A stretch of DNA of 64,000 bases from Omnitrophica bacterium GWA2_41_15 (GCA_919902105.1 CAKKQO010000017.1:3305-67304); one strand, 5' to 3'; shown: positions 21,256 through 62,376, counted from the first letter of the stretch. Notes: generated by a model from the letters alone, not told the origin. A program made the numbers and translations.

Positions 21256-21933
21256 ATGAGAAAGACAATATTATTTTTATCCTGGTTAATTTTTTACGTA
21301 GGTTCTGCCTATGCCGTGCCGATGAAAGGGCCGTATTTTTTAAAACAAGGCCAAATTGAGGTAGGCGTTGAGGCAAATTTTGTCGCCAGGCGCGATATTG
21401 AGGATATTACTACAAACATCCAAAGCAGCCAATTTTTTTATTGCATGGCCTTTGGTTTGTTTGACTGGTTAAATATCGAGGCAAAGTATGGCTCAGGCGA
21501 TATTAAGAACGATCAATATAATGACCAGAAATTTTATTATAATTACAACTGGGGCGGCGGATACGGCTTAAGAATAAAGGCATATGAAAACCATAAAATG
21601 AAAATTATCTTAGGGGCTCATCATATTAGTATCCATCCTGACCCGAACAAAAATACGGATAATTCAACCCATCGCGTAATTTTAGACGAAACGCAGTCCG
21701 ATATAACTTTAAGCCTAAAAGGAGAAAGGTTTAGCCCATACGCAGGCGCAAAAGTCGGGCATACCCGCCTTATCCGGCGCATAAATTCTGAGCGCGCGAC
21801 ATTACGCTCGGAAGAAAATTACGGTTTTGCTTTAGGGTTTGATTATATGTTTAAGAAAAACGTGCGTTTTAATTTTGAAGGCCGCTTCGTCGATGAATAC
21901 GCTTTGACCTCGAGCGTAAGCTACATATTTTAA
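21256..21933 (+). CDS. Putative outer-membrane beta-barrel protein
   Basis: 225 aa. Signal peptide (..GSAYA), alternating amphipathic strands, C-terminal ...SVSYIF. Confidence 0.5.
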   Translation: MRKTILFLSWLIFYVGSAYAVPMKGPYFLKQGQIEVGVEANFVARRDIEDITTNIQSSQFFYCMAFGLFDWLNIEAKYGSGDIKNDQYNDQKFYYNYNWGGGYGLRIKAYENHKMKIILGAHHISIHPDPNKNTDNSTHRVILDETQSDITLSLKGERFSPYAGAKVGHTRLIRRINSERATLRSEENYGFALGFDYMFKKNVRFNFEGRFVDEYALTSSVSYIF

Positions 21934-22673: not shown

Positions 22674-23302
22674 TTACGCAAAAAACAGGAATAGAGATTA
22701 AGGCGATATTGTTTGATCTAGGTAATGTCACGGTAAATTTTAACCATTATTTAGCCGTTGAAAGGATAAAAAATTTTACGGATAAAAGCGGCGATGAAAT
22801 TTATCGGTTATTTTTTGATTCTGACCTTACCGGCTTATTTGAAGAAGGAAAACTTAAGCCTTATGAATTTTACCGTAAGGTAAAGGAACTTCTAAAAGTT
22901 AAAATTAGCTACGAAGAATTTGTGCCTATCTGGAATGAGATATTTTTTATTAGCGAAGATAACCTAAAAATGCACGCCCTGATTAAAAAATTCAGAGAAA
23001 AATTTACGGTGGTGTTAATTTCCAATATCAATAAGTTGCACTATGATTATTTGATAAAAAAATATGATATATTTGAAGAGTTTGATAAACATATACTTTC
23101 CTACGAAGTAGGTGCGCGTAAGCCGGCTACTTTAATTTATAAAGCAGCACTTAGGGATGCAGACGCAGATATTAAAGATGTGGTTTATATCGACGATAGG
23201 GAAGATTTAGTCAAGCAGGGTAACGCCTTGGGGATAAAGAGCATATGTTTTAAAAATTATCCGGCCCTTGTAGAAAGTTTAGGCGCCCTGGGGTTAATAT
23301 AA
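22670..23302 (+). CDS. HAD-superfamily hydrolase (subfamily IA-like)
   Basis: 210 aa. Motif I AILFDLGNV, motif II ISN, C-terminal YIDDRE. Confidence 0.7.
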   Translation: MITQKTGIEIKAILFDLGNVTVNFNHYLAVERIKNFTDKSGDEIYRLFFDSDLTGLFEEGKLKPYEFYRKVKELLKVKISYEEFVPIWNEIFFISEDNLKMHALIKKFREKFTVVLISNINKLHYDYLIKKYDIFEEFDKHILSYEVGARKPATLIYKAALRDADADIKDVVYIDDREDLVKQGNALGIKSICFKNYPALVESLGALGLI

Positions 23303-23304
23303 GG

Positions 23305-23440
23305 ATTTGCGGCATCGAGAAAAATCTAATCGCCAGCCGGCAGATTTTTCTTGCGTCGCAAAAGTATTTGCGACATCAAGCAAAAAATTTACGCCAGTTG
23401 GCATTTTTTGCTTGACAACAACTATATCTTGTGTTAACTT
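23305..23440 (+). promoter_or_regulatory. Promoter-carrying hairpin repeat (P family), copy P1 with duplicated unit; TTGACA-17-TAACTT
   Basis: GAAAAATCT-aatcgccagccggc-AGATTTTTC, TCGCAAA-agta-TTTGCGA, CATC, GCAAAAAAT-ttacgccagttggc-ATTTTTTGC, then TTGACA 23412-23417 and TAACTT 23435-23440. Confidence 0.55.
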
Positions 23441-23531
23441 TAAAGTATAAACGCAAGAAATAGTTGTGGAAAACTATAAGTATAAATAAACGGGGGTAAG
23501 AAGACAAAATTGAAAAACGAGTAAATTTTAA

Positions 23532-23562
23532 AGAGGCCAAAAAATAAAGGGCCTCTTTTTTT
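23532..23562 (+). terminator. Intrinsic terminator-like hairpin inside the leader between promoter P1 and the ATP-grasp gene
   Basis: AGAGGCC-aaaaaataaag-GGCCTCT followed by a T run. Confidence 0.7.
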
Positions 23563-23621
23563 GTGATACTTTGGCTTTAGTTAGAATGGTTTGCTACTAA
23601 GAAAGAGAGAATCTTGCAATT

Positions 23622-24620
23622 ATGGCTTTAAAAGTTGGCTTAACTTACGATTTAAGAATTGATCGTCCTGTCCAGAAGGGAGAGCCACAGGATATTAACG
23701 CGGAATTTGATTTCGAAGAAACAGTTAATAATATCGCCGCCTCCATCGAGACGGGCGGCCATAAAGTGATTAAGATAGGCGGAGTGAAAAACCTGCTGAA
23801 TATGTCCGATGGCATTAAAAATAAAGTCGATATAGTTTTTAATATTTGCGAAGGCTATCTTGGCAGAAACAGGGAAGCGCAGGTTCCGGTAATTTTAGAG
23901 ATGTTGGGCGTGCCTTTTGTGGGGTCGGATGGTTTGACCTTAAGTCTTGCTTTGGATAAAGTAATGACGAAAAAAGTGCTTATATCTGAAGGGATTCCTA
24001 CGCCTAAGTATTTTGTGGTAAACAGCTACGATAGTGCATATAATTTAGACCATCTAAACTTTCCATTGATTGCAAAATTAAGATATGAAGGGGCATCAAA
24101 AGGCATAACAGAAAAATCACGCGTAGAAGATACTAAAGAATTAAAAACGCAGATAGATTACCTTGTTTCTAATTATAAGCAGGCGGTATTGGTAGAAGAG
24201 TTTATCAGGGGCCTTGAATTTACGGTGCCGATTATCGGCAATGAAAAGGCGGAAGTTTTCCCGCCCGCGCAGGTGCATATCGATAACAATGTTGATTTGG
24301 GAGACCAGTTTTACACTTTTGATTTTATCGCCTCAGATAGGTTAGGCTATGTTTATCCGGCAAAGATTCCTAAAAAATTGCAAGAGAAGTTATGCAGTTT
24401 AGCGCTAGCGACCTATAAAGCAGTAGACTGCCGCGATTTCGGCAGGGTGGATTTCCGCCTAGACTATGAAGGCAATCCTTATGTTTTAGAGATTAACCCA
24501 TTACCATCGCTTGCATTGAAAGATGTGTATAAGTTGGTTGCGGATTATAAAAGAGTTCCATATCAAAAGATAATTAACCGTATATTGGATGCGGGGATTA
24601 AAAGATATAATTTAAATTAG
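23622..24620 (+). CDS. ATP-grasp ligase of the D-alanine--D-alanine ligase family
   Basis: 332 aa. Ddl-like layout (GVPFVGS, PLIAKLRYEGASKGI, LVEEFIRG.EF, DFGRVDFRLD, LEINPLP). Confidence 0.75.
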   Translation: MALKVGLTYDLRIDRPVQKGEPQDINAEFDFEETVNNIAASIETGGHKVIKIGGVKNLLNMSDGIKNKVDIVFNICEGYLGRNREAQVPVILEMLGVPFVGSDGLTLSLALDKVMTKKVLISEGIPTPKYFVVNSYDSAYNLDHLNFPLIAKLRYEGASKGITEKSRVEDTKELKTQIDYLVSNYKQAVLVEEFIRGLEFTVPIIGNEKAEVFPPAQVHIDNNVDLGDQFYTFDFIASDRLGYVYPAKIPKKLQEKLCSLALATYKAVDCRDFGRVDFRLDYEGNPYVLEINPLPSLALKDVYKLVADYKRVPYQKIINRILDAGIKRYNLN

Positions 24621-30633: not shown

Positions 30634-32079
30634 ATGACCCACCCCCAAGCAATCCGCTATTTAGAATCCTTAGTAAACTACGAGAAGAAATCCTATTATC
30701 ATTATAAACACGCATTTAAATTAGAGGGCATAAAGAATTTTTTAGAAATCTTGGGCAATCCGCAGGATTCTCTACGCTGTATTCATATTGCCGGCACTAA
30801 AGGTAAGGGTTCAACCTGTGCCTTTATTGCTCATATCTTAAGAGAGGCCGGACTTTCCGTCGGACTTTATACCTCGCCGCATTTATCGGATTTCCGCGAG
30901 CGCATTAGGATTTTAACCATACCACCTACTACCTATCACCTATCACCTGAATTTGAGGGGATGATTTCAAAACAAGCGTTATCGCGCTTGGCTTGGCGCC
31001 TAAAGCCGACAATAGATAAATTTAACCACAATTCTAAATACGGCCCGCTGACATTTTTTGAAGTTTATACGGCACTCGCCTTTATTTATTTTAAAGAAAA
31101 AAAAGTGGATTTTGCGGTTTTAGAGACGGGTTTGGGCGGAAGATTAGATGCCACAAATGTGATTAATCCTTTAGTCTGCGTAATTACCCCGATAAGTTTA
31201 GAGCATACTCAACTTTTGGGCAATACATTAACGAAAATTGCCCGCGAGAAGGTGGGTATTATCAAGAAGTTTCGCCCCTCGCCCCTCGCCCCTCGCCCCT
31301 CGGTAGTAATCAGCGCGCCGCAGGAGGAAGCAGCAGCTAGGGTGATTAGGGATAGATGTAGAAAAGTTGGCGCTAGATTATATGAAGTAGGGAAGGATAT
31401 AAGATACAAAAAATCCGAAATCCGAAATCCGAAATCCGAAATAAATCTAAAATCCAAAATCAAAAAATTTAAAATCCGCGGAATTTTTAATGAATATAAT
31501 AATTTAAAAATAAAACTTTTAGGTAAGCATCAGCTGGTGAATGCCGCCACGGCAGTGGGGGCAGTTGAGGCGTTAAAAAAATACGGCATTAGTGTAAATA
31601 TCGATGCGATAAGAAAAGGGCTTTATAATACGTTTTGGCCGGGCAGATGCGAAATTGTATCTAAGAAACCGTTAATTGTTTTAGACGGTGCGCAGAATGT
31701 TGCTTCAGCTAAGGCATTAAAAGAAACGATTAAAGAAAATTTTTCCACCGAAGGCGGATCCGCCTCCGGCGGAAAGTATAAAAAGTTAATTCTGGTTTTA
31801 GGGGCTTGTTGCGATAAAGATATTAAGGGAATATGTAATGAGTTGTGCTTGATGGCAGACGAAATCATCTTAACCAAAGCCAAAAACCCGCGGGCGGCGG
31901 AGCCGGAGCATATCAGGGTTCAGGGTTCAGGGTTAAGGGTTAAGGAAAAAATACATTTAACAGAAAATGTAGAGGAAGCGATTCAAAAAGCAGAAGAGCT
32001 TACTAGCAAAGAAGATTTAATCCTGATTACGGGGTCGTTGTTTGTGGTGGCAGAGGCGAGGGAAGTGTTGCAGAAATGA
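30634..32079 (+). CDS. folC: Folylpolyglutamate synthase / dihydrofolate synthase, with several low-complexity in-frame inserts
   Basis: 481 aa. HIAGTKGKGST P-loop, LETGLGGRLDATN, GKHQLVNAATA, LDGAQNV blocks. Start abuts the purH stop. Confidence 0.85.
   Translation: MTHPQAIRYLESLVNYEKKSYYHYKHAFKLEGIKNFLEILGNPQDSLRCIHIAGTKGKGSTCAFIAHILREAGLSVGLYTSPHLSDFRERIRILTIPPTTYHLSPEFEGMISKQALSRLAWRLKPTIDKFNHNSKYGPLTFFEVYTALAFIYFKEKKVDFAVLETGLGGRLDATNVINPLVCVITPISLEHTQLLGNTLTKIAREKVGIIKKFRPSPLAPRPSVVISAPQEEAAARVIRDRCRKVGARLYEVGKDIRYKKSEIRNPKSEINLKSKIKKFKIRGIFNEYNNLKIKLLGKHQLVNAATAVGAVEALKKYGISVNIDAIRKGLYNTFWPGRCEIVSKKPLIVLDGAQNVASAKALKETIKENFSTEGGSASGGKYKKLILVLGACCDKDIKGICNELCLMADEIILTKAKNPRAAEPEHIRVQGSGLRVKEKIHLTENVEEAIQKAEELTSKEDLILITGSLFVVAEAREVLQK
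30923..30950 (+). repeat. Heptanucleotide tandem array in folC (CACCTAT-type, 4 units)
   Basis: CACCTAC TACCTAT CACCTAT CACCTGA. Translated as PTTYHLSP. Confidence 0.85.
31272..31302 (+). repeat. Heptanucleotide tandem array in folC (TCGCCCC x4)
   Basis: TCGCCCC x4 then TCGG. Translated as RPSPLAPRPS. Confidence 0.9.
31411..31480 (+). repeat. Heptanucleotide tandem array in folC (AAATCCG x4 plus degenerate AAAATCC-type units)
   Basis: AAATCCG x4, then AAATAAATCT AAAATCC AAAATCA AAAAATTT AAAATCCGCGG. Translated as KSEIRNPKSEINLKSKIKKFKIRG. Confidence 0.9.
31742..31775. repeat. 34-bp GC-rich palindrome, folC copy (31/34 identical to the mnmE copy)
   Basis: TTTCCACCGAAGGCGGATCCGCCTCCGGCGGAAA. 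Two A-C mismatches in the stem. Translated as STEGGSASGGK. Confidence 0.85.
31923..31957 (+). repeat. Heptanucleotide tandem array in folC (TCAGGGT x3, TAAGGGT, TAAGGAA)
   Basis: Direct reading. Translated as RVQGSGLRVKE. Confidence 0.9.
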
Positions 32080-36023: not shown

Positions 36024-36368
36024 ATGGAGCATTCTAAAATACAATTAGCCGACAAACAAGCCGACGGCTATTGTATTAACTTACGCCCTTCCTCTAAAGG
36101 TATAAGGAAGGCGTATCCTACTGGATTAGGCGCGGTTAATTTAGTCTTTATGGTTACGAATAAGGGAATGTTAGGGTGCGGCGCCTTTAATGTAGCGGTG
36201 CTGGATAAATTTAACTACCCTACCGCTGTTGTGCGTTCAACTTCCGGCTCGCCTATTGCAACCATTGACGAACTTCTCTCTGGCGTAGTCAAAGAGGCAA
36301 ATGCCTCTGCCATCAAACTTGGCGTAAAAGCCGGTATGCCGGCTAAAAATGCCTTGGAAAAATTATAA
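36024..36368 (+). CDS. DUF1805 (YunC-like) family protein
   Basis: 114 aa. NLVFMVTNKGMLGCGAF pattern resembles DUF1805. Tentative. Confidence 0.5.
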   Translation: MEHSKIQLADKQADGYCINLRPSSKGIRKAYPTGLGAVNLVFMVTNKGMLGCGAFNVAVLDKFNYPTAVVRSTSGSPIATIDELLSGVVKEANASAIKLGVKAGMPAKNALEKL

Positions 36369-58209: not shown

Positions 58210-59632
58210 AAAAATAAATTTTGTTCTTGTCCCTATCGCTGTTTGCTTTTCTTTGGGGATATCGGCGGCGAGTTTCACTAATATCCCTTTTTTTATTTGT
58301 TATCCGCTTTCTGCCATTCTGCTCATTGTTTGTTTATTCCTAAGAGATGATGAGGCGTTTAGCATAAATTTATTGGGCCTGGCTTTTTTTATCGGGGCAG
58401 CGCATTTATCCTCTTATCAGACCCTACCTAAAAATCACATTGCTGATGCTAATAATCGCTGGATATTTTGGCAGGATGGTATTTTGGCAAGGGGTCTTAT
58501 TATCGATGAGCCGCAAATTAAAGAGGGAAGAGCTAAGTTTATATTATATTTGTCAGAGATAAAGGTTGGGGGTGGGGAACAAAAAGCAACAGTAAGGGGA
58601 AAAATTTTAGTTACGGTTTTTGACGGAGAAGTATTGCCAAAAATATCTTACGGCGATGAGGTAATTTTGGAGGGAAAATTTTTCAGGCCGCATAATTTTG
58701 GTAAAAAAAGCAATTTCGACTATCGCCGTTATTTAACGCGCCGAGGCATATACGGTGCATTAAATGTCAGAAAAGGCGCGCCTTTTAAAATAACCGCGCA
58801 TAATAGAGGGAATTTTATTAAGCAATTGGCGATTAAATTTAAAAATAAAATAGAGTCTGGCTTTTACGCTAATATGCCTGAAAGCTACGCGGCGGTCTTA
58901 TCAACAATGTTATTAGGGGATAGGTCGAGTTTACCTAAAGGGATTTTAGAAGTATTTGTCAGGACCGGCACCGCCCATATTCTGGCTATAAGCGGCATGA
59001 ATATCGCGATAACCGCTTTTATTCTGCTTGTATTTCTAAAAGTAATGCGCATTCCCAGAAAGCCGCGTTATATTTTAACCATCCTGCTCCTTGTATTTTA
59101 TAATTTTATTACCGGCGCACAGCCGTCTGTAAGCCGAGCAGTGATTATGGGCTCGGTTTTGTTAGTCGGATTGTTGCTTGAGAGGGAGGTAAATATCTAT
59201 AATTCTCTGGCTTTGGCAGCGTTAATCCTACTGGCACAAAATCCCTTGCAAATACAAGAGATAGGGTTTCAACTGTCTTTTGTCAGCGTTATCTCAATAG
59301 TTTATCTTTCCCCAAAGATAGAAAGGTTTTTACGCCTGAATAATTTTATTCTAAAATCTTTTTCTGTATCGCTGGCGGCGTGGCTTGGCACATTCCTATT
59401 CATAATTTATTACTTTAAGATTATTTCGCCGGTGACTATTTTGGCTAATTTAGTTATTGTGCCTTTGGTAACGGTGCTTACGGTGGCAGGGTTTATTTTG
59501 ATGTTGGGGATATTTATTCTACCGGCTTTTGTTCACGTATTTGGCCTGACTGCGGGTGCAAGCGTTTATCTCTTGATTAAATCCGCTGAACTTTTCTCCC
59601 TCATCCCCGGCGCATATTTTTATTTAAAATAA
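58187..59632 (+). CDS. comEC: ComEC/Rec2 DNA internalisation channel (DUF4131 + competence domain; no metallo-beta-lactamase domain)
   Basis: 481 aa, multi-TM. Conserved GTAHILAISGMNI and SRAVIMG blocks. TTG start uncertain. Confidence 0.7.
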   Translation: MFLKSQNKKINFVLVPIAVCFSLGISAASFTNIPFFICYPLSAILLIVCLFLRDDEAFSINLLGLAFFIGAAHLSSYQTLPKNHIADANNRWIFWQDGILARGLIIDEPQIKEGRAKFILYLSEIKVGGGEQKATVRGKILVTVFDGEVLPKISYGDEVILEGKFFRPHNFGKKSNFDYRRYLTRRGIYGALNVRKGAPFKITAHNRGNFIKQLAIKFKNKIESGFYANMPESYAAVLSTMLLGDRSSLPKGILEVFVRTGTAHILAISGMNIAITAFILLVFLKVMRIPRKPRYILTILLLVFYNFITGAQPSVSRAVIMGSVLLVGLLLEREVNIYNSLALAALILLAQNPLQIQEIGFQLSFVSVISIVYLSPKIERFLRLNNFILKSFSVSLAAWLGTFLFIIYYFKIISPVTILANLVIVPLVTVLTVAGFILMLGIFILPAFVHVFGLTAGASVYLLIKSAELFSLIPGAYFYLK

Positions 59633-59633
59633 A

Positions 59634-59729
59634 TTTTTCTTGCGCCACAAAAGTCTTTGCGGCATCGCGCAAAAAATTTACGCCAGAAGGCATTTTTTGC
59701 TTGACAAACAAAATCGGATTGATTAAAAT
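59634..59729 (+). promoter_or_regulatory. P-family hairpin repeat copy P2 with TTGACA-17-TAAAAT; leaderless start
   Basis: CTTGCG, CCACAAA-agtc-TTTGCGG, CATC, GCGCAAAAAAT-ttacgccagaaggc-ATTTTTTGC, TTGACA 59701-59706, TAAAAT 59724-59729, ATG 59737. Confidence 0.6.
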
Positions 59730-59736
59730 ATTGCAT

Positions 59737-60651
59737 ATGGTCAAAAAGAGCTTAATCATCTTAGCTATTTTTAATTGTTTTGTATTTCCTGCCTTTGCGT
59801 TAGACTCCGAAGAGTCCTCAGATAAACAAACTACTTCACAAGCGCTAGATAATCAACAAGACATACCTGACTGGCTAACGCGCACGAGCTTCGGCCTAGA
59901 GGGCGGATCGGACAAGAAACTAAAATATTTCATTGAAACCGTTCAGCCGCTTTTAGGCACAGAGGAAGAAATTATCACATTATTTAACCACACCCGTCTT
60001 TCACTGCAAGACGAAAGGCAAATCTTTAACACCGGTTTTGGCATAAGAAAAATATTTAACGAAAGTTACCTCTTGGGTATCAATGCCTTTTACGACTACC
60101 AGGATTTAAACAAGCATAGCCGGGGAGGAATTGGCTTTGAAGCAGTAAATGACTTTGGCCTTGAAGCGCGCCTAAATACGTATTTTAGAATTTCCCATGA
60201 ACAGATTGTAGAAGACGCAGGCGCTAGCCAGTTTTATGAAAAAGTGGCAAATGGCTTTGATTGGGAAGTAGGCTGTCCCATTCCTTATTTATCAGCCATA
60301 CGCCTTTATGGAGGCGGCTATCTCTACGACTTTGAGCATTTCCGGAATAAAGCGGGATGGAAGTCAAGAATGGAATACACCCCTATTAAGAATTCTCGTC
60401 TCGTCCTTGAGATGTTCGATGATAACAAGCGCGATGATATCGGCTTCCGCGTAGAAGGCGTAATTACCTTGGCATTTACGTCGTTTAATTGGAAGGATAT
60501 CTTAAAAGACTTGAAATTAGCAAAAGAGCCTTTCTCTAAAATTGATCTAAATAATAGAAAATTAGACAGGGTAGTCAGGGATTTTGATATTACGGTAATA
60601 AAGTCTACTAAATCCGGCGGTTTGGTAATAGAGGGCGGCAGGAGCAATTAA
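59737..60651 (+). CDS. Stand-alone inverse-autotransporter (intimin/invasin-type) beta-barrel domain protein
   Basis: ATG 59737 with signal peptide. Blocks VQPLLG, TLFNHTRLS, NTGFGIRK, LLGINAFYDYQ, HSRGGIGFE, NTYFRIS, ANGFDWE and EYTP match the IAT_beta pattern as I remember it. Confidence 0.7.
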   Translation: MVKKSLIILAIFNCFVFPAFALDSEESSDKQTTSQALDNQQDIPDWLTRTSFGLEGGSDKKLKYFIETVQPLLGTEEEIITLFNHTRLSLQDERQIFNTGFGIRKIFNESYLLGINAFYDYQDLNKHSRGGIGFEAVNDFGLEARLNTYFRISHEQIVEDAGASQFYEKVANGFDWEVGCPIPYLSAIRLYGGGYLYDFEHFRNKAGWKSRMEYTPIKNSRLVLEMFDDNKRDDIGFRVEGVITLAFTSFNWKDILKDLKLAKEPFSKIDLNNRKLDRVVRDFDITVIKSTKSGGLVIEGGRSN

Positions 60652-61273: not shown

Positions 61274-61301
61274 TTGACTTTTTTTATTTTTGTGGTATAA
61301 T
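61274..61301 (+). promoter_or_regulatory. Promoter TTGACT-16-TATAAT with extended -10 TG
   Basis: TTGACT 61274-61279, TGG-TATAAT 61293-61301. Confidence 0.55.
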
Positions 61302-61341
61302 TAAAATGTAAGCGCGAAGCAGCGCTTAAAAGACAAGGCAG

Positions 61342-61369
61342 TCCGCAAAAGATAATTTTGCGGATTTTT
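61342..61369 (+). terminator. Intrinsic terminator-like hairpin
   Basis: TCCGCAAAA-gataa-TTTTGCGGA + TTTTT. Confidence 0.7.
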
Positions 61370-61370
61370 A

Positions 61371-61451
61371 TTGAGGCCACAACTTATGGAGCGAATGCGC
61401 TCATAAGTTGTATGGCCGAAATAATCCCGCGGATAGTTTACGAAGCGGGAT
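61371..61451 (-). repeat. BH family copy H
   Basis: TTATTGAG + GGCCACAACTTATG...CATAAGTTGTATGGCC + GAAATAA + TCCCGC-ggatagtttacgaa-GCGGGA. Confidence 0.7.
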
Positions 61452-61469
61452 AGAAGAATGAAGGGAGTA

Positions 61470-61506
61470 AAGGCGCTCCGGTAAAACGGAGCGCCTTTTT
61501 ATTTTT
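61470..61506 (+). terminator. Strong intrinsic terminator
   Basis: AAGGCGCTCCG-gtaaaa-CGGAGCGCCTT + TTTATTTTT. Confidence 0.85.
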
Positions 61507-62252: not shown

Positions 62253-62274
62253 GCATGTAAGGATAGGCCTTTTT

Positions 62275-62376
62275 CCTTGCGTCGTAAAAGTTTTTACGAC
62301 ATCAGCAAAATCTAATCGCAAGTTTGTAGATTTTGTTTGACAGAACAAGTCTAATAAAGTATATTAGTGTATACTT
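62275..62376 (+). promoter_or_regulatory. P-family hairpin repeat copy P3 with TTGACA-17-TATATT and an overlapping 7-6-7 inverted repeat (candidate ArsR operator)
   Basis: CTTGCG, TCGTAAA-agtt-TTTACGA, CATC, CAAAATCT-aatcgcaagtttgt-AGATTTTG, TTGACA 62337-62342, TATATT 62360-62365, AAGTATA-ttagtg-TATACTT 62357-62376. Confidence 0.55.

Follow-up and report, generated by a model that had tools for sequence, protein, structure and literature searches.

Strong promoters such as E. coli rrnB P1 carry UP elements and upstream activator sites, A/T tracts that directly precede the −35 box (around −38 to −45 and −60 to −66); promoters of rRNA, tRNA and ribosomal-protein genes are among those that have them. 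UP elements are not hairpins, show no covariation and are not repeated modules. Supercoil-extruded DNA hairpins read at or near a promoter have precedents in the phage N4 virion RNA polymerase hairpin promoters and in engineered E. coli cruciform-controlled promoters, and palindrome-associated elements (PATEs) derived from IS200/IS605 carry subterminal hairpins, use a short specific target, leave no obvious duplication and are strand dependent. The 61-nt repeat described here, the P unit, recurs directly upstream of predicted promoters in a 64,000-nt stretch of DNA (the window) from Omnitrophica bacterium GWA2_41_15 (GCA_919902105.1 CAKKQO010000017.1:3305–67304), and thus in the uncultured Omnitrophota, of whose organization of transcription, to our knowledge, nothing is known. 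P units resemble UP elements in their A/T tracts and in the rRNA, tRNA and ribosomal-protein promoters at which they are found, and differ from them in being repeated hairpins with covarying stems. Unlike the N4 hairpins, which lie at the start site, and unlike the engineered ones, P units accompany canonical sigma-70 hexamers, and their extrusion is hypothetical. They share with the IS200/IS605-derived elements all of the features just listed, and the guide-target recognition of IS608 resembles the pairing of an internal TCAAG of the P unit with a flanking CTTGA; in contrast, each P unit combines two hairpins that are mutually unlike, evidence of excision is lacking, and no TnpA gene was found, none having been searched for.

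The defining features of two further groups of intergenic repeats, the Correia and REP/BIME elements, were tested and do not describe P units. Correia elements (CREE/NEMIS) of Neisseria are miniature inverted-repeat transposable elements (MITEs) of ~70–157 bp with terminal inverted repeats, present in ~120–250 copies and restricted to one genus (PMC2649163). Like P units, they are short repeats of intergenic DNA, frequently on the 5′ side of genes, and occur at sigma-70 promoters with one hexamer from the element and one native hexamer; related genomes differ in carrying them or not, and relics of their ends can remain (PMC2649163). P units, unlike Correia elements, lack terminal inverted repeats (the unit ends, CTTGCG... 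and ...TTTTTTG, are not inverted repeats), comprise two different hairpins in a fixed order, are present in few copies but in many species, and at both of the tested loci are docked on a −35 box that was already there and create none. Repetitive extragenic palindromes (REPs) are described in two published accounts as carrying a GTAG or CGTC tag, as usually exceeding 100 per genome, and as lying mostly downstream of genes, between unidirectional or convergent open reading frames (PMC3733652; PMC2817692). P units share with REP, BIME and REPIN elements imperfect extragenic palindromes of 20–40 nt, covarying stems, and clusters that include inverted neighbors (L055 and L025; L numbers denote loci outside the window), and are likewise candidates for recognition as single-stranded hairpins. 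Unlike REPs, they are untagged, with no conserved GTAG or CGTC in the consensus flanks (CTTGCG, CATCAAG, and CTTGACA), few in number, oriented to the downstream gene, and found in unidirectional and divergent spacers; moreover, related species have different REP classes but a common P consensus. With Rfam 15 at gathering thresholds, a scan of the whole window gave no family match at the three P loci, and a permissive scan of 23250–23650 gave best E-values of 0.05–0.5, far below gathering scores. A search of the literature on Omnitrophota promoters, repeats, and intergenic or palindromic sequences likewise found no description of the P repeat.

In silico analysis reveals a repeat family of defined structure with covarying stems, which is arranged and oriented with respect to promoters, is separable from those promoters, and turns over in a modular manner. 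We propose that P units are conserved, structured, non-coding accessory modules that dock at existing sigma-70-type promoters, on their upstream edge, an interpretation drawn from sequence comparison to which we assign a probability of about 0.5.

Structure, distribution and promoter context of P units

One unit of 61 nt consists of CTTGCG, hairpin 1 (8 bp, with an AGNN loop), CATCAAG, hairpin 2, and a T-tract. Hairpin 2 is formed by a 13-bp A/T-rich outer stem (TCAAGCAAAAAAT / ATTTTTTGCTTGA), a 4-nt 5′ bulge, a 3-bp inner stem, and an AGNN loop, and the consensus reads ATTTTT CTTGCG-CCGCAAA-AGTC-TTTGCGG-CATCAAG-CAAAAAAT-AACC-GCC-AGTT-GGC-ATTTTTTG-CTTGACA. Units occur singly or in head-to-tail arrays of two to four, and CTTG is always common to a unit and either the next unit or CTTGACA. 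Because units share CTTG with CTTGACA, in the final hairpin 2 the outer stem (TCAAG/CTTGA) includes, as folded, TTGA, the first four bases of the −35 box. CTTG is the only sequence common to both sides of a unit, and may represent either the target itself or a duplication of 4 bp.

The hairpin-1 pattern CTTGCGNNNNAAAAGTNTTTRCGRCATC matches the window at 23350, 59639, and 62276, on the + strand only (three matches versus 0.01 expected; 0 of 100 shuffles reached three), which confirms a shared unit at the three loci where a preliminary description of this DNA had reported one. Four P units are present at these loci, every one on the + strand, and each array ends at TTGACA. The features, with positions counted from the first nucleotide of the window and scores in bits from a covariance model, are:

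23303–23349, + strand: distal partial unit A of locus 1, directly 3′ of the stop codon (TAA, 23300–23302) of the HAD-hydrolase gene
23350–23410, + strand: unit B of locus 1, full 61-nt module from CTTGCG to TTTTTTG; 97.6 bits
23412–23440, + strand: predicted promoter 1, −35 TTGACA (23412–23417), 17-nt spacer, extended −10 TGT-TAACTT (TAACTT, 23435–23440)
23447–23563, + strand: predicted leader of promoter 1, ~120 nt, with a strong intrinsic terminator at 23532–23563 (AGAGGCC...GGCCTCT and a T run)
59633–59700, + strand: single unit of locus 2, ATTTTT followed by the 61-nt module (59639–59699); 88.1 bits
59701–59729, + strand: predicted promoter 2, TTGACA (59701–59706), 17 nt, TAAAAT (59724–59729)
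62270–62336, + strand: single unit of locus 3, module at 62276–62336; 86.8 bits
62337–62365, + strand: predicted promoter 3, TTGACA (62337–62342), 17 nt, TATATT (62360–62365)

A repeat search of the window recovers the same family (as D2 and D7), including the partial upstream unit at 23303–23349, and the covariance model, which gives the three full window units 87–98 bits, finds no full unit beyond those three in the 64 kb. In unit A, hairpin 1 lacks its left arm and is represented by a remnant of the 3′ arm (TTTGCGGC, 23306–23313); hairpin 2, of the TCT/AGA type, is complete (23316–23353) and has CTTG in common with unit B. Of the duplicated unit previously claimed at 23305–23440, the second copy is present in full and the first is partial. 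Unit B has hairpin 1 at 23355–23374 (8 bp, loop AGTA) and hairpin 2 at 23376–23415 (13 bp, bulge TTAC, then GCC-AGTT-GGC). The corresponding hairpins of locus 2 lie at 59644–59663, with one A·C mismatch, and at 59665–59704, and those of locus 3 at 62281–62300 (TCGTAAA/TTTACGA) and 62302–62340 (CAAAATCT/AGATTTTG, with an inner stem GCAA/TTGT). Hairpin 2 had been recognized before, but at 13 bp it is longer than was then described and takes in the first four −35 bases; similarly, what had been taken for a conserved loop core, CGCCAG..GGC, contains the AGNN loop, whereas its GCC/GGC is a covarying 3-bp inner stem with a 4-nt 5′ bulge.

Unit B and a consensus-like copy, L011, fold at approximately −28 to −30 kcal/mol as RNA and approximately −22 kcal/mol as DNA, with folding z-scores of −5 to −6 on either strand, and for the other two window units folding is less favorable (−17 to −25 kcal/mol, z-scores −1.6 to −3.3). 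In a MAFFT alignment of 23 copies, 97.3% of the cells are paired, and 9 of the 19 pairs have changes on both sides. An alignment of 55 distinct copies, which was itself fitted to the covariance model, has 96.8% of its cells paired and compensatory changes in 13/19 pairs, values that none of 500 shuffles reached, and slid controls are 37–58% paired; the stem covariation noted earlier within the window is thereby much extended beyond it. The inner stem of hairpin 2 also covaries (GCC/GGC, GCT/AGC, GTC/GAC, GGC/GCC, GCA/TGC). Both loops are AGNN on the + strand, also in sets of copies whose search pattern left the loops free. The mismatches in the stems are without strand bias (G·T 16, A·C 12), a symmetry that argues against a purely + strand RNA role.

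A scan of one genome per GTDB species with an exact pattern covering hairpin 1 only identified 31 loci in about 15 species. These belong to Candidatus Omnitrophota, with two exceptions: a metagenome-assembled genome (MAG) recorded as an uncultured bacterium, and L011, a 3-kb contig from a Pseudomonadota bin that is identical to an Omnitrophota contig (L027) over the element and flanks; homologs of the window proteins are likewise named Omnitrophota. Hairpin 2 and the −35 box, absent from the pattern, follow in nearly all of the genome-scan matches. The unit is also present in many metagenomes. Scanning metagenome contigs with an independent pattern, which fixes neither of the two arms of hairpin 1 and not the −35 box, identified 30 loci, all with hairpin 1 upstream and most continuing with TTGACA, among which are new compensatory arm variants (e.g. 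TCGGAAA/TTTCCGA and CCGCACA/TGTGCGG). Two scans of viral contigs returned 0 P units, and a metagenome scan seeded with the ComEC protein returned no relatives. There are three loci in the 64-kb window and nine strict matches in the richest MAG, and ~180 kb fetched around genes of relatives contained one full unit (on the overlapping contigs L066/L067).

Hexamers resembling TTGACA and TATAAT, spaced 16–18 nt apart as in sigma-70-type promoters, are present at 3/3 window loci, and the earlier assignment of TTGACA followed 17 nt later by TAACTT, TAAAAT, or TATATT holds at each. The −35 box follows the unit in ~90% of ~60 copies from other genomes, and −10 boxes (≥5/6 match) are found at spacers of 16–17 nt in 18 of 29 distinct copies, compared with ~0.7 per other spacing. 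The nearest downstream feature is co-oriented with the array in about 45/48 cases, and the upstream gene is divergent in about 8/51; convergent contexts are almost absent, and the clearest of them, L002, has lost its −35. A few copies (L002, L033/L047, and L044) have no usable −35 or −10 box, the case that the preliminary description had named as evidence that would refute it. In L033/L047 and L044, a point-mutated CTTGA is accompanied by a ribosome-binding site and ATG directly after the unit; in L041 and L052 the element is interrupted.

The features downstream are varied. In L030, a cobalamin riboswitch model matches 192–380, with the +1 predicted at ~192 from a −10 at 180–185; in L008, a 16S-tRNA-23S operon follows the element, ~200 nt past the predicted start; and in L007, a tRNA lies ~40 nt past the predicted start. 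The downstream protein genes, identified by eye from their translations, encode or correspond to cspA (two cases), rplM (two cases), enolase (eno), Rex, an AsrA-like Fe-S protein (three cases), a membrane pyrophosphatase, GlgE, GH130, and MerR. In the window, Pfam assigns the flanks as HAD hydrolase and then Ddl-like ATP-grasp at locus 1, ComEC and then an inverse-autotransporter beta domain at locus 2, and an ECF-type sigma factor and then ArsR at locus 3, in agreement with the downstream genes named previously, with the addition that the ~120-nt leader and its terminator precede the ATP-grasp gene. Genes around all three loci are on the + strand; the locus-2 unit begins 1 nt past the ComEC stop codon (59630–59632), and the ATG codons of the inverse-autotransporter and ArsR genes lie at 59737 and 62402, downstream of promoters 2 and 3, respectively. 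P elements thus appear to mark real promoter regions, leaning toward highly expressed genes, and the family provides a ready, high-confidence marker of transcription start regions in Omnitrophota MAGs (rRNA, tRNA, cspA, rplM, eno, and riboswitch-led operons).

Two other promoter readings of the repeat were rejected. An internal weak promoter in each unit (TTGCGC, 17 nt, CATCAA) would have a −10 matching at only 3/6 positions, with key T residues absent, and in a sigma-54 reading of TGGCA-N-TTGC the GG-GC spacing is, by inspection, 2 nt short.

The same promoters with and without P units

Homologs of the Ddl-like protein of locus 1 yielded a graded series of orthologs with conserved synteny, all of which retain the promoter (CTTGACAA, N, TGTGTTAnTTT), the ~120-nt leader, and the terminator; promoter 1 is thus homologous to the promoters of L063, L064, L066, L071, and L072, with or without P units. 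A second, shorter series was obtained for rplM. The members are listed below, with protein identity to the window (Ddl-like series) or to L005 (rplM series) unless indicated otherwise.

L071, Ddl-like, 64%: no unit; A-rich tract upstream of the −35
L072, Ddl-like, 63%: no unit; A-rich tract (TAAAAATA-CTTGACA)
L066, Ddl-like, 79%: one full unit
L064, Ddl-like, 81%: hairpin 2 alone, plus a nested GC-rich palindrome
L063, Ddl-like, 93%: relic only, CCAGCCGGCAGATTTTT before CTTGACA; all of unit B absent
Window locus 1, Ddl-like, reference: CCAGCCGGCAGATTTTT relic, 30 nt upstream of it, and a precise 61-nt unit B; 1.6 units
L055, Ddl-like, DNA ~97% identical to the window: an additional complete inverted unit (64 bits)
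L074, rplM, 72%: no unit (...CAAATT-CTTGACA-...TTTTTATGATATAAT)
L073, rplM, 86%: relic only (GGCATTTTTTTG)
L005, rplM, reference: one unit, preceded by an A-rich flank as at unit-free promoters
L020, rplM, 86%: two units

The organism of L071 comes from run DRR093005, the source of a MAG with P units at L009 and L013. The unit-free orthologs at both the Ddl-like and the rplM loci carry an A-rich tract where the P unit puts its T-tract, and whole units are gained or lost between close relatives at the TTTTTnCTTG junction. Junctions within arrays are CTTGCG-like and never TTGACA, and the −10 and the spacer are locus specific and lie outside the repeat. Since a homologous promoter is present in unit-free relatives, the promoter was not brought by the element at these two loci; at both, which are those that can be polarized, the −35, spacer, and −10 can be separated from the unit and, on a parsimony argument, predate it. 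The claim that P elements are portable promoters is consequently the least supported part of the earlier finding: a covarying repeat does end at a sigma-70-type promoter, but the same promoter occurs without any unit in L071, L072, and L074 and with only a relic in L063 and L073. The Ddl-like loci together constitute a natural allelic series of one promoter with 0, 0.4, 1, 1.6, and 2.6 units.

At window locus 2, relatives with 80% and 62% identity have no unit after ComEC. In the 62% relative (L070) a different gene lies downstream of ComEC, and in the 80% relative (L069) the contig ends 37 nt past the ComEC stop codon. A ComEC ortholog in MAG JAUXSB01 (L068:10001–10855) was called as a 284-aa fragment and is followed by unrelated genes (RHH_3, ParB_N, Mrr_cat, and others), possibly reflecting an inserted island or a rearrangement at the position of the window P locus 2.

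Proposed role and alternative explanations

The stems are 97% paired despite ~22% divergence between copies, with many combinations of arm variants, and one consensus is found in at least 15 species; further, the element is kept upstream of an AsrA-like gene in genomes whose AsrA-like proteins share only 46% identity. Such a pattern accords better with selection for pairing in place than with the decay of recently copied elements. There is no sign of a recent burst: mean identity is 0.779 within genomes and 0.785 between genomes (permutation p = 0.6), and a recent intragenomic burst or concerted evolution was rejected because within-genome identity is not above that between genomes. We propose that selection keeps the hairpins for intrastrand pairing at the DNA level, that an extruded or single-stranded hairpin may be read by a conserved protein, and that the module would tune the adjacent promoter rather than create it. 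Possible routes for such tuning are replacement of a native A-rich, UP-like region by the T-tract, a structure that would sequester or expose the −35, and insulation of the promoter from upstream transcription. With a conserved DNA hairpin that includes part of a −35 box, it is conceivable that promoters are controlled through structure or that insertion is targeted to promoters.

Several points weigh against an accessory role in regulation. Unit-sized insertions and deletions between relatives 93–97% identical, and the inverted extra unit of L055, suggest spread or recombination over stable regulation. So do the distal unit of L049/L055, which is recombinant, with mismatched arms, the composite shared by three loci of one MAG (L002, L021, and L008), in which a mini-hairpin is nested in the hairpin-2 bulge, the other insertions found between hairpin 1 and CATC, and the assemblies that break inside the unit. 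Relic-only and unit-free orthologs show that a promoter can exist without the hairpins, whose benefit may therefore be nil. The AGNN loops are strand asymmetric, which a simple cruciform model does not explain, and the conserved hairpin-reading protein is putative. Promoter activity and its tuning are themselves predictions from sequence, and the polarity of gain versus loss is a parsimony argument with two outgroups for the Ddl-like locus and one for rplM.

Many of the same observations are expected of the main rival, which we consider somewhat unlikely, namely that P units are selfish, non-autonomous hairpin elements (REP/REPIN- or IS200/IS605-PATE-like) that target promoters. Mobilized as single-stranded DNA by a hairpin-binding transposase, such elements would insert immediately 5′ of CTTGA, with the target maybe recognized via the internal TCAAG; the promoter association would then reflect target choice, and the stems would be conserved for mobilizability. 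The precise 61-nt presence or absence at CTTG junctions in close relatives, the inverted extra unit of L055, the prior presence of the CTTGACA target in unit-free orthologs, and the A-rich flank upstream of the L005 unit, as in unit-free promoters, are all in keeping with this, as are the nesting of other mini-hairpin elements at two hot spots, the recurrence of one composite at three loci of one MAG, the assemblies that break inside the unit, and the combination of strand-symmetric mismatches with strand-specific loops. The copy number is, however, low (3 loci/64 kb and one full unit in ~180 kb of relatives), and one consensus occurs in at least 15 species without an excess of within-genome similarity, unlike active REPIN or MITE families. 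Stem pairing of 97% at ~22% divergence looks like selection in place rather than decay, terminal inverted repeats and GTAG/CGTC tags are lacking, viral contigs gave 0 matches, and no transposase was identified in the available 8–21-kb loci, in which no transposase search was made. A further reading, which we judge rather unlikely, is a promoter-homing mobile module: a 61-nt single-stranded DNA hairpin element that would recognize the −35 hexamer itself, its internal TCAAG pairing with the CTTGA of CTTGACA, which inserts with base precision upstream of the −35, and which is kept lineage-wide by a hairpin-binding, possibly domesticated, enzyme. If this were so, promoters would carry an extrudable structure able to sequester their own −35.

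If instead the unit brought a −35 and an UP-like tract, and so made a new promoter wherever a −10-like hexamer lies 16–18 nt downstream, as Correia elements do, the continuity of the −35 with hairpin 2, into which it is paired, and the mutually unrelated downstream genes would be explained; the locus-2 relatives without a unit after ComEC, with another gene there in L070, would allow the element and the gene to have arrived together, and a composite with a TTGATA box (see below) is found in different gene contexts in at least six species. This is already contradicted at both polarizable loci, where a homologous −35, spacer, and −10 exist unit-free, and the CTTGCG rather than TTGACA of the array-internal junctions, the locus-specific −10 and spacer, and the need of essential targets (rRNA, tRNA, rplM, and eno) always to have had promoters make it improbable in general. 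An RNA-level element of the upstream transcript, acting as a terminator, insulator, or 3′-end stabilizer within a terminator-promoter cassette, is suggested by units that often lie 1–60 nt past a co-directional stop codon with no room for another terminator, by the A-tract and T-tract that flank hairpin 2, whose inner stem a terminator scan flags on the − strand, and by the L033/L047 and L044 copies, which must be transcribed, being directly before a ribosome-binding site and ATG. We nevertheless regard such a role as hardly probable, given an upstream gene that is divergent in about 8/51 cases and convergent contexts that are nearly absent, no preference for G·U over A·C (16 versus 12), the lack of a U-run after either full hairpin, the canonical GC-rich terminators elsewhere in the window (23532–23563 and 61469–61498), and conserved unpaired bases that would be superfluous for a simple terminator. 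An intrinsic terminator was itself rejected: hairpin 1 is followed by CATCAAG and hairpin 2 by CA, and only the 3–5-bp inner stem is flagged, weakly, on the − strand. Very improbable, in our estimate, is a pair of double-stranded operators, in which the two palindromes would be bound by dimeric transcription factors and define a regulon. Operators would suit the position at −37 to −100 relative to the start, a unit period of ~61 nt that is close to an inferred six helical turns, and the high conservation of sequence, non-stem bases included, but coordinated complementary changes in the arms (13/19 pairs) are not expected of dimer half-sites, the downstream genes have no functional theme beyond many being highly expressed, and the number of units differs between close relatives.

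Assembly breaks, the locus-1 leader and related repeats

A Logan contig with the same ArsR gene as window locus 3 breaks inside the locus-3 unit. Public assemblies also break inside or beside P units at L032:1–48, L065:1–30, the end of L069, and L049:1–60, and the closest ComEC homologs and many L13 homologs sit on 1–3 kb contigs. P repeats fragment Omnitrophota assemblies at housekeeping-gene promoters, which explains assembly breaks beside certain genes.

The leader at 23447–23563 precedes an operon of Ddl-like and lysine-2,3-aminomutase (LAM) genes that starts at 23622. Its core motif, AAGAAGACAAAATTG(G)AAAAA, is kept in orthologs down to 63% protein identity (L063, L064, L066, L071, and L072), whereas the peptide of a tiny open reading frame within it (23510–23524) is not conserved among orthologs. 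The leader is a candidate attenuator, riboswitch, or small RNA.

In a TTGATA subfamily (L007, L015, L016, L019, L023, L031, L043, and L046; e.g. L015:470–800, − strand), a P unit and its TTGATA-17-TATAAT promoter are bracketed by 17-bp inverted repeats (TATAACTTTATCTCTTA and TAAGAGATAgAGTTATA) that are separated by ~190 nt. Conservation extends to the left flank and a ~50-nt leader, and the composite adjoins different genes in at least six species; its layout is reminiscent of an invertible promoter (inverton) or a MITE. Among the repeats of the window, family D1/D3 (e.g. at 21931, 28818, 35093, and 61368) is similar to the inverted repeat of this subfamily.

Tiny hairpin repeats are nested in P units at two recurrent sites, the 5′ bulge of hairpin 2 and the junction of CATC with the 3′ arm of hairpin 1. 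Examples are found at L002:6260–6320, L021:4090–4150, upstream of L008:4293, in L017/L019, and at L018:1180–1330, L060:9660–9740, and L064:9790–9830. The nested families also occur in the window, as D5 (GGTAAGACCCGTCC...) at 36079, 41112, and 41158 and as D15 (CCGAAGGCGGATCCGCC...) at 31736 and 34662.

A consensus promoter (TTGACT, 16 nt, TG-TATAAT; 61274–61301) lies upstream of the sigma-factor gene of the window. Approximately 40 nt past it there is a stem-loop that resembles hairpin 1 and has a T run (TCCGCAAAA-GATAA-TTTTGCGGA, 61340–61366), followed by a D1-family repeat (61368–61429) and a strong terminator (61469–61498), all before the sigma-factor gene; the segments within 61274–61498 may give rise to short non-coding transcripts.

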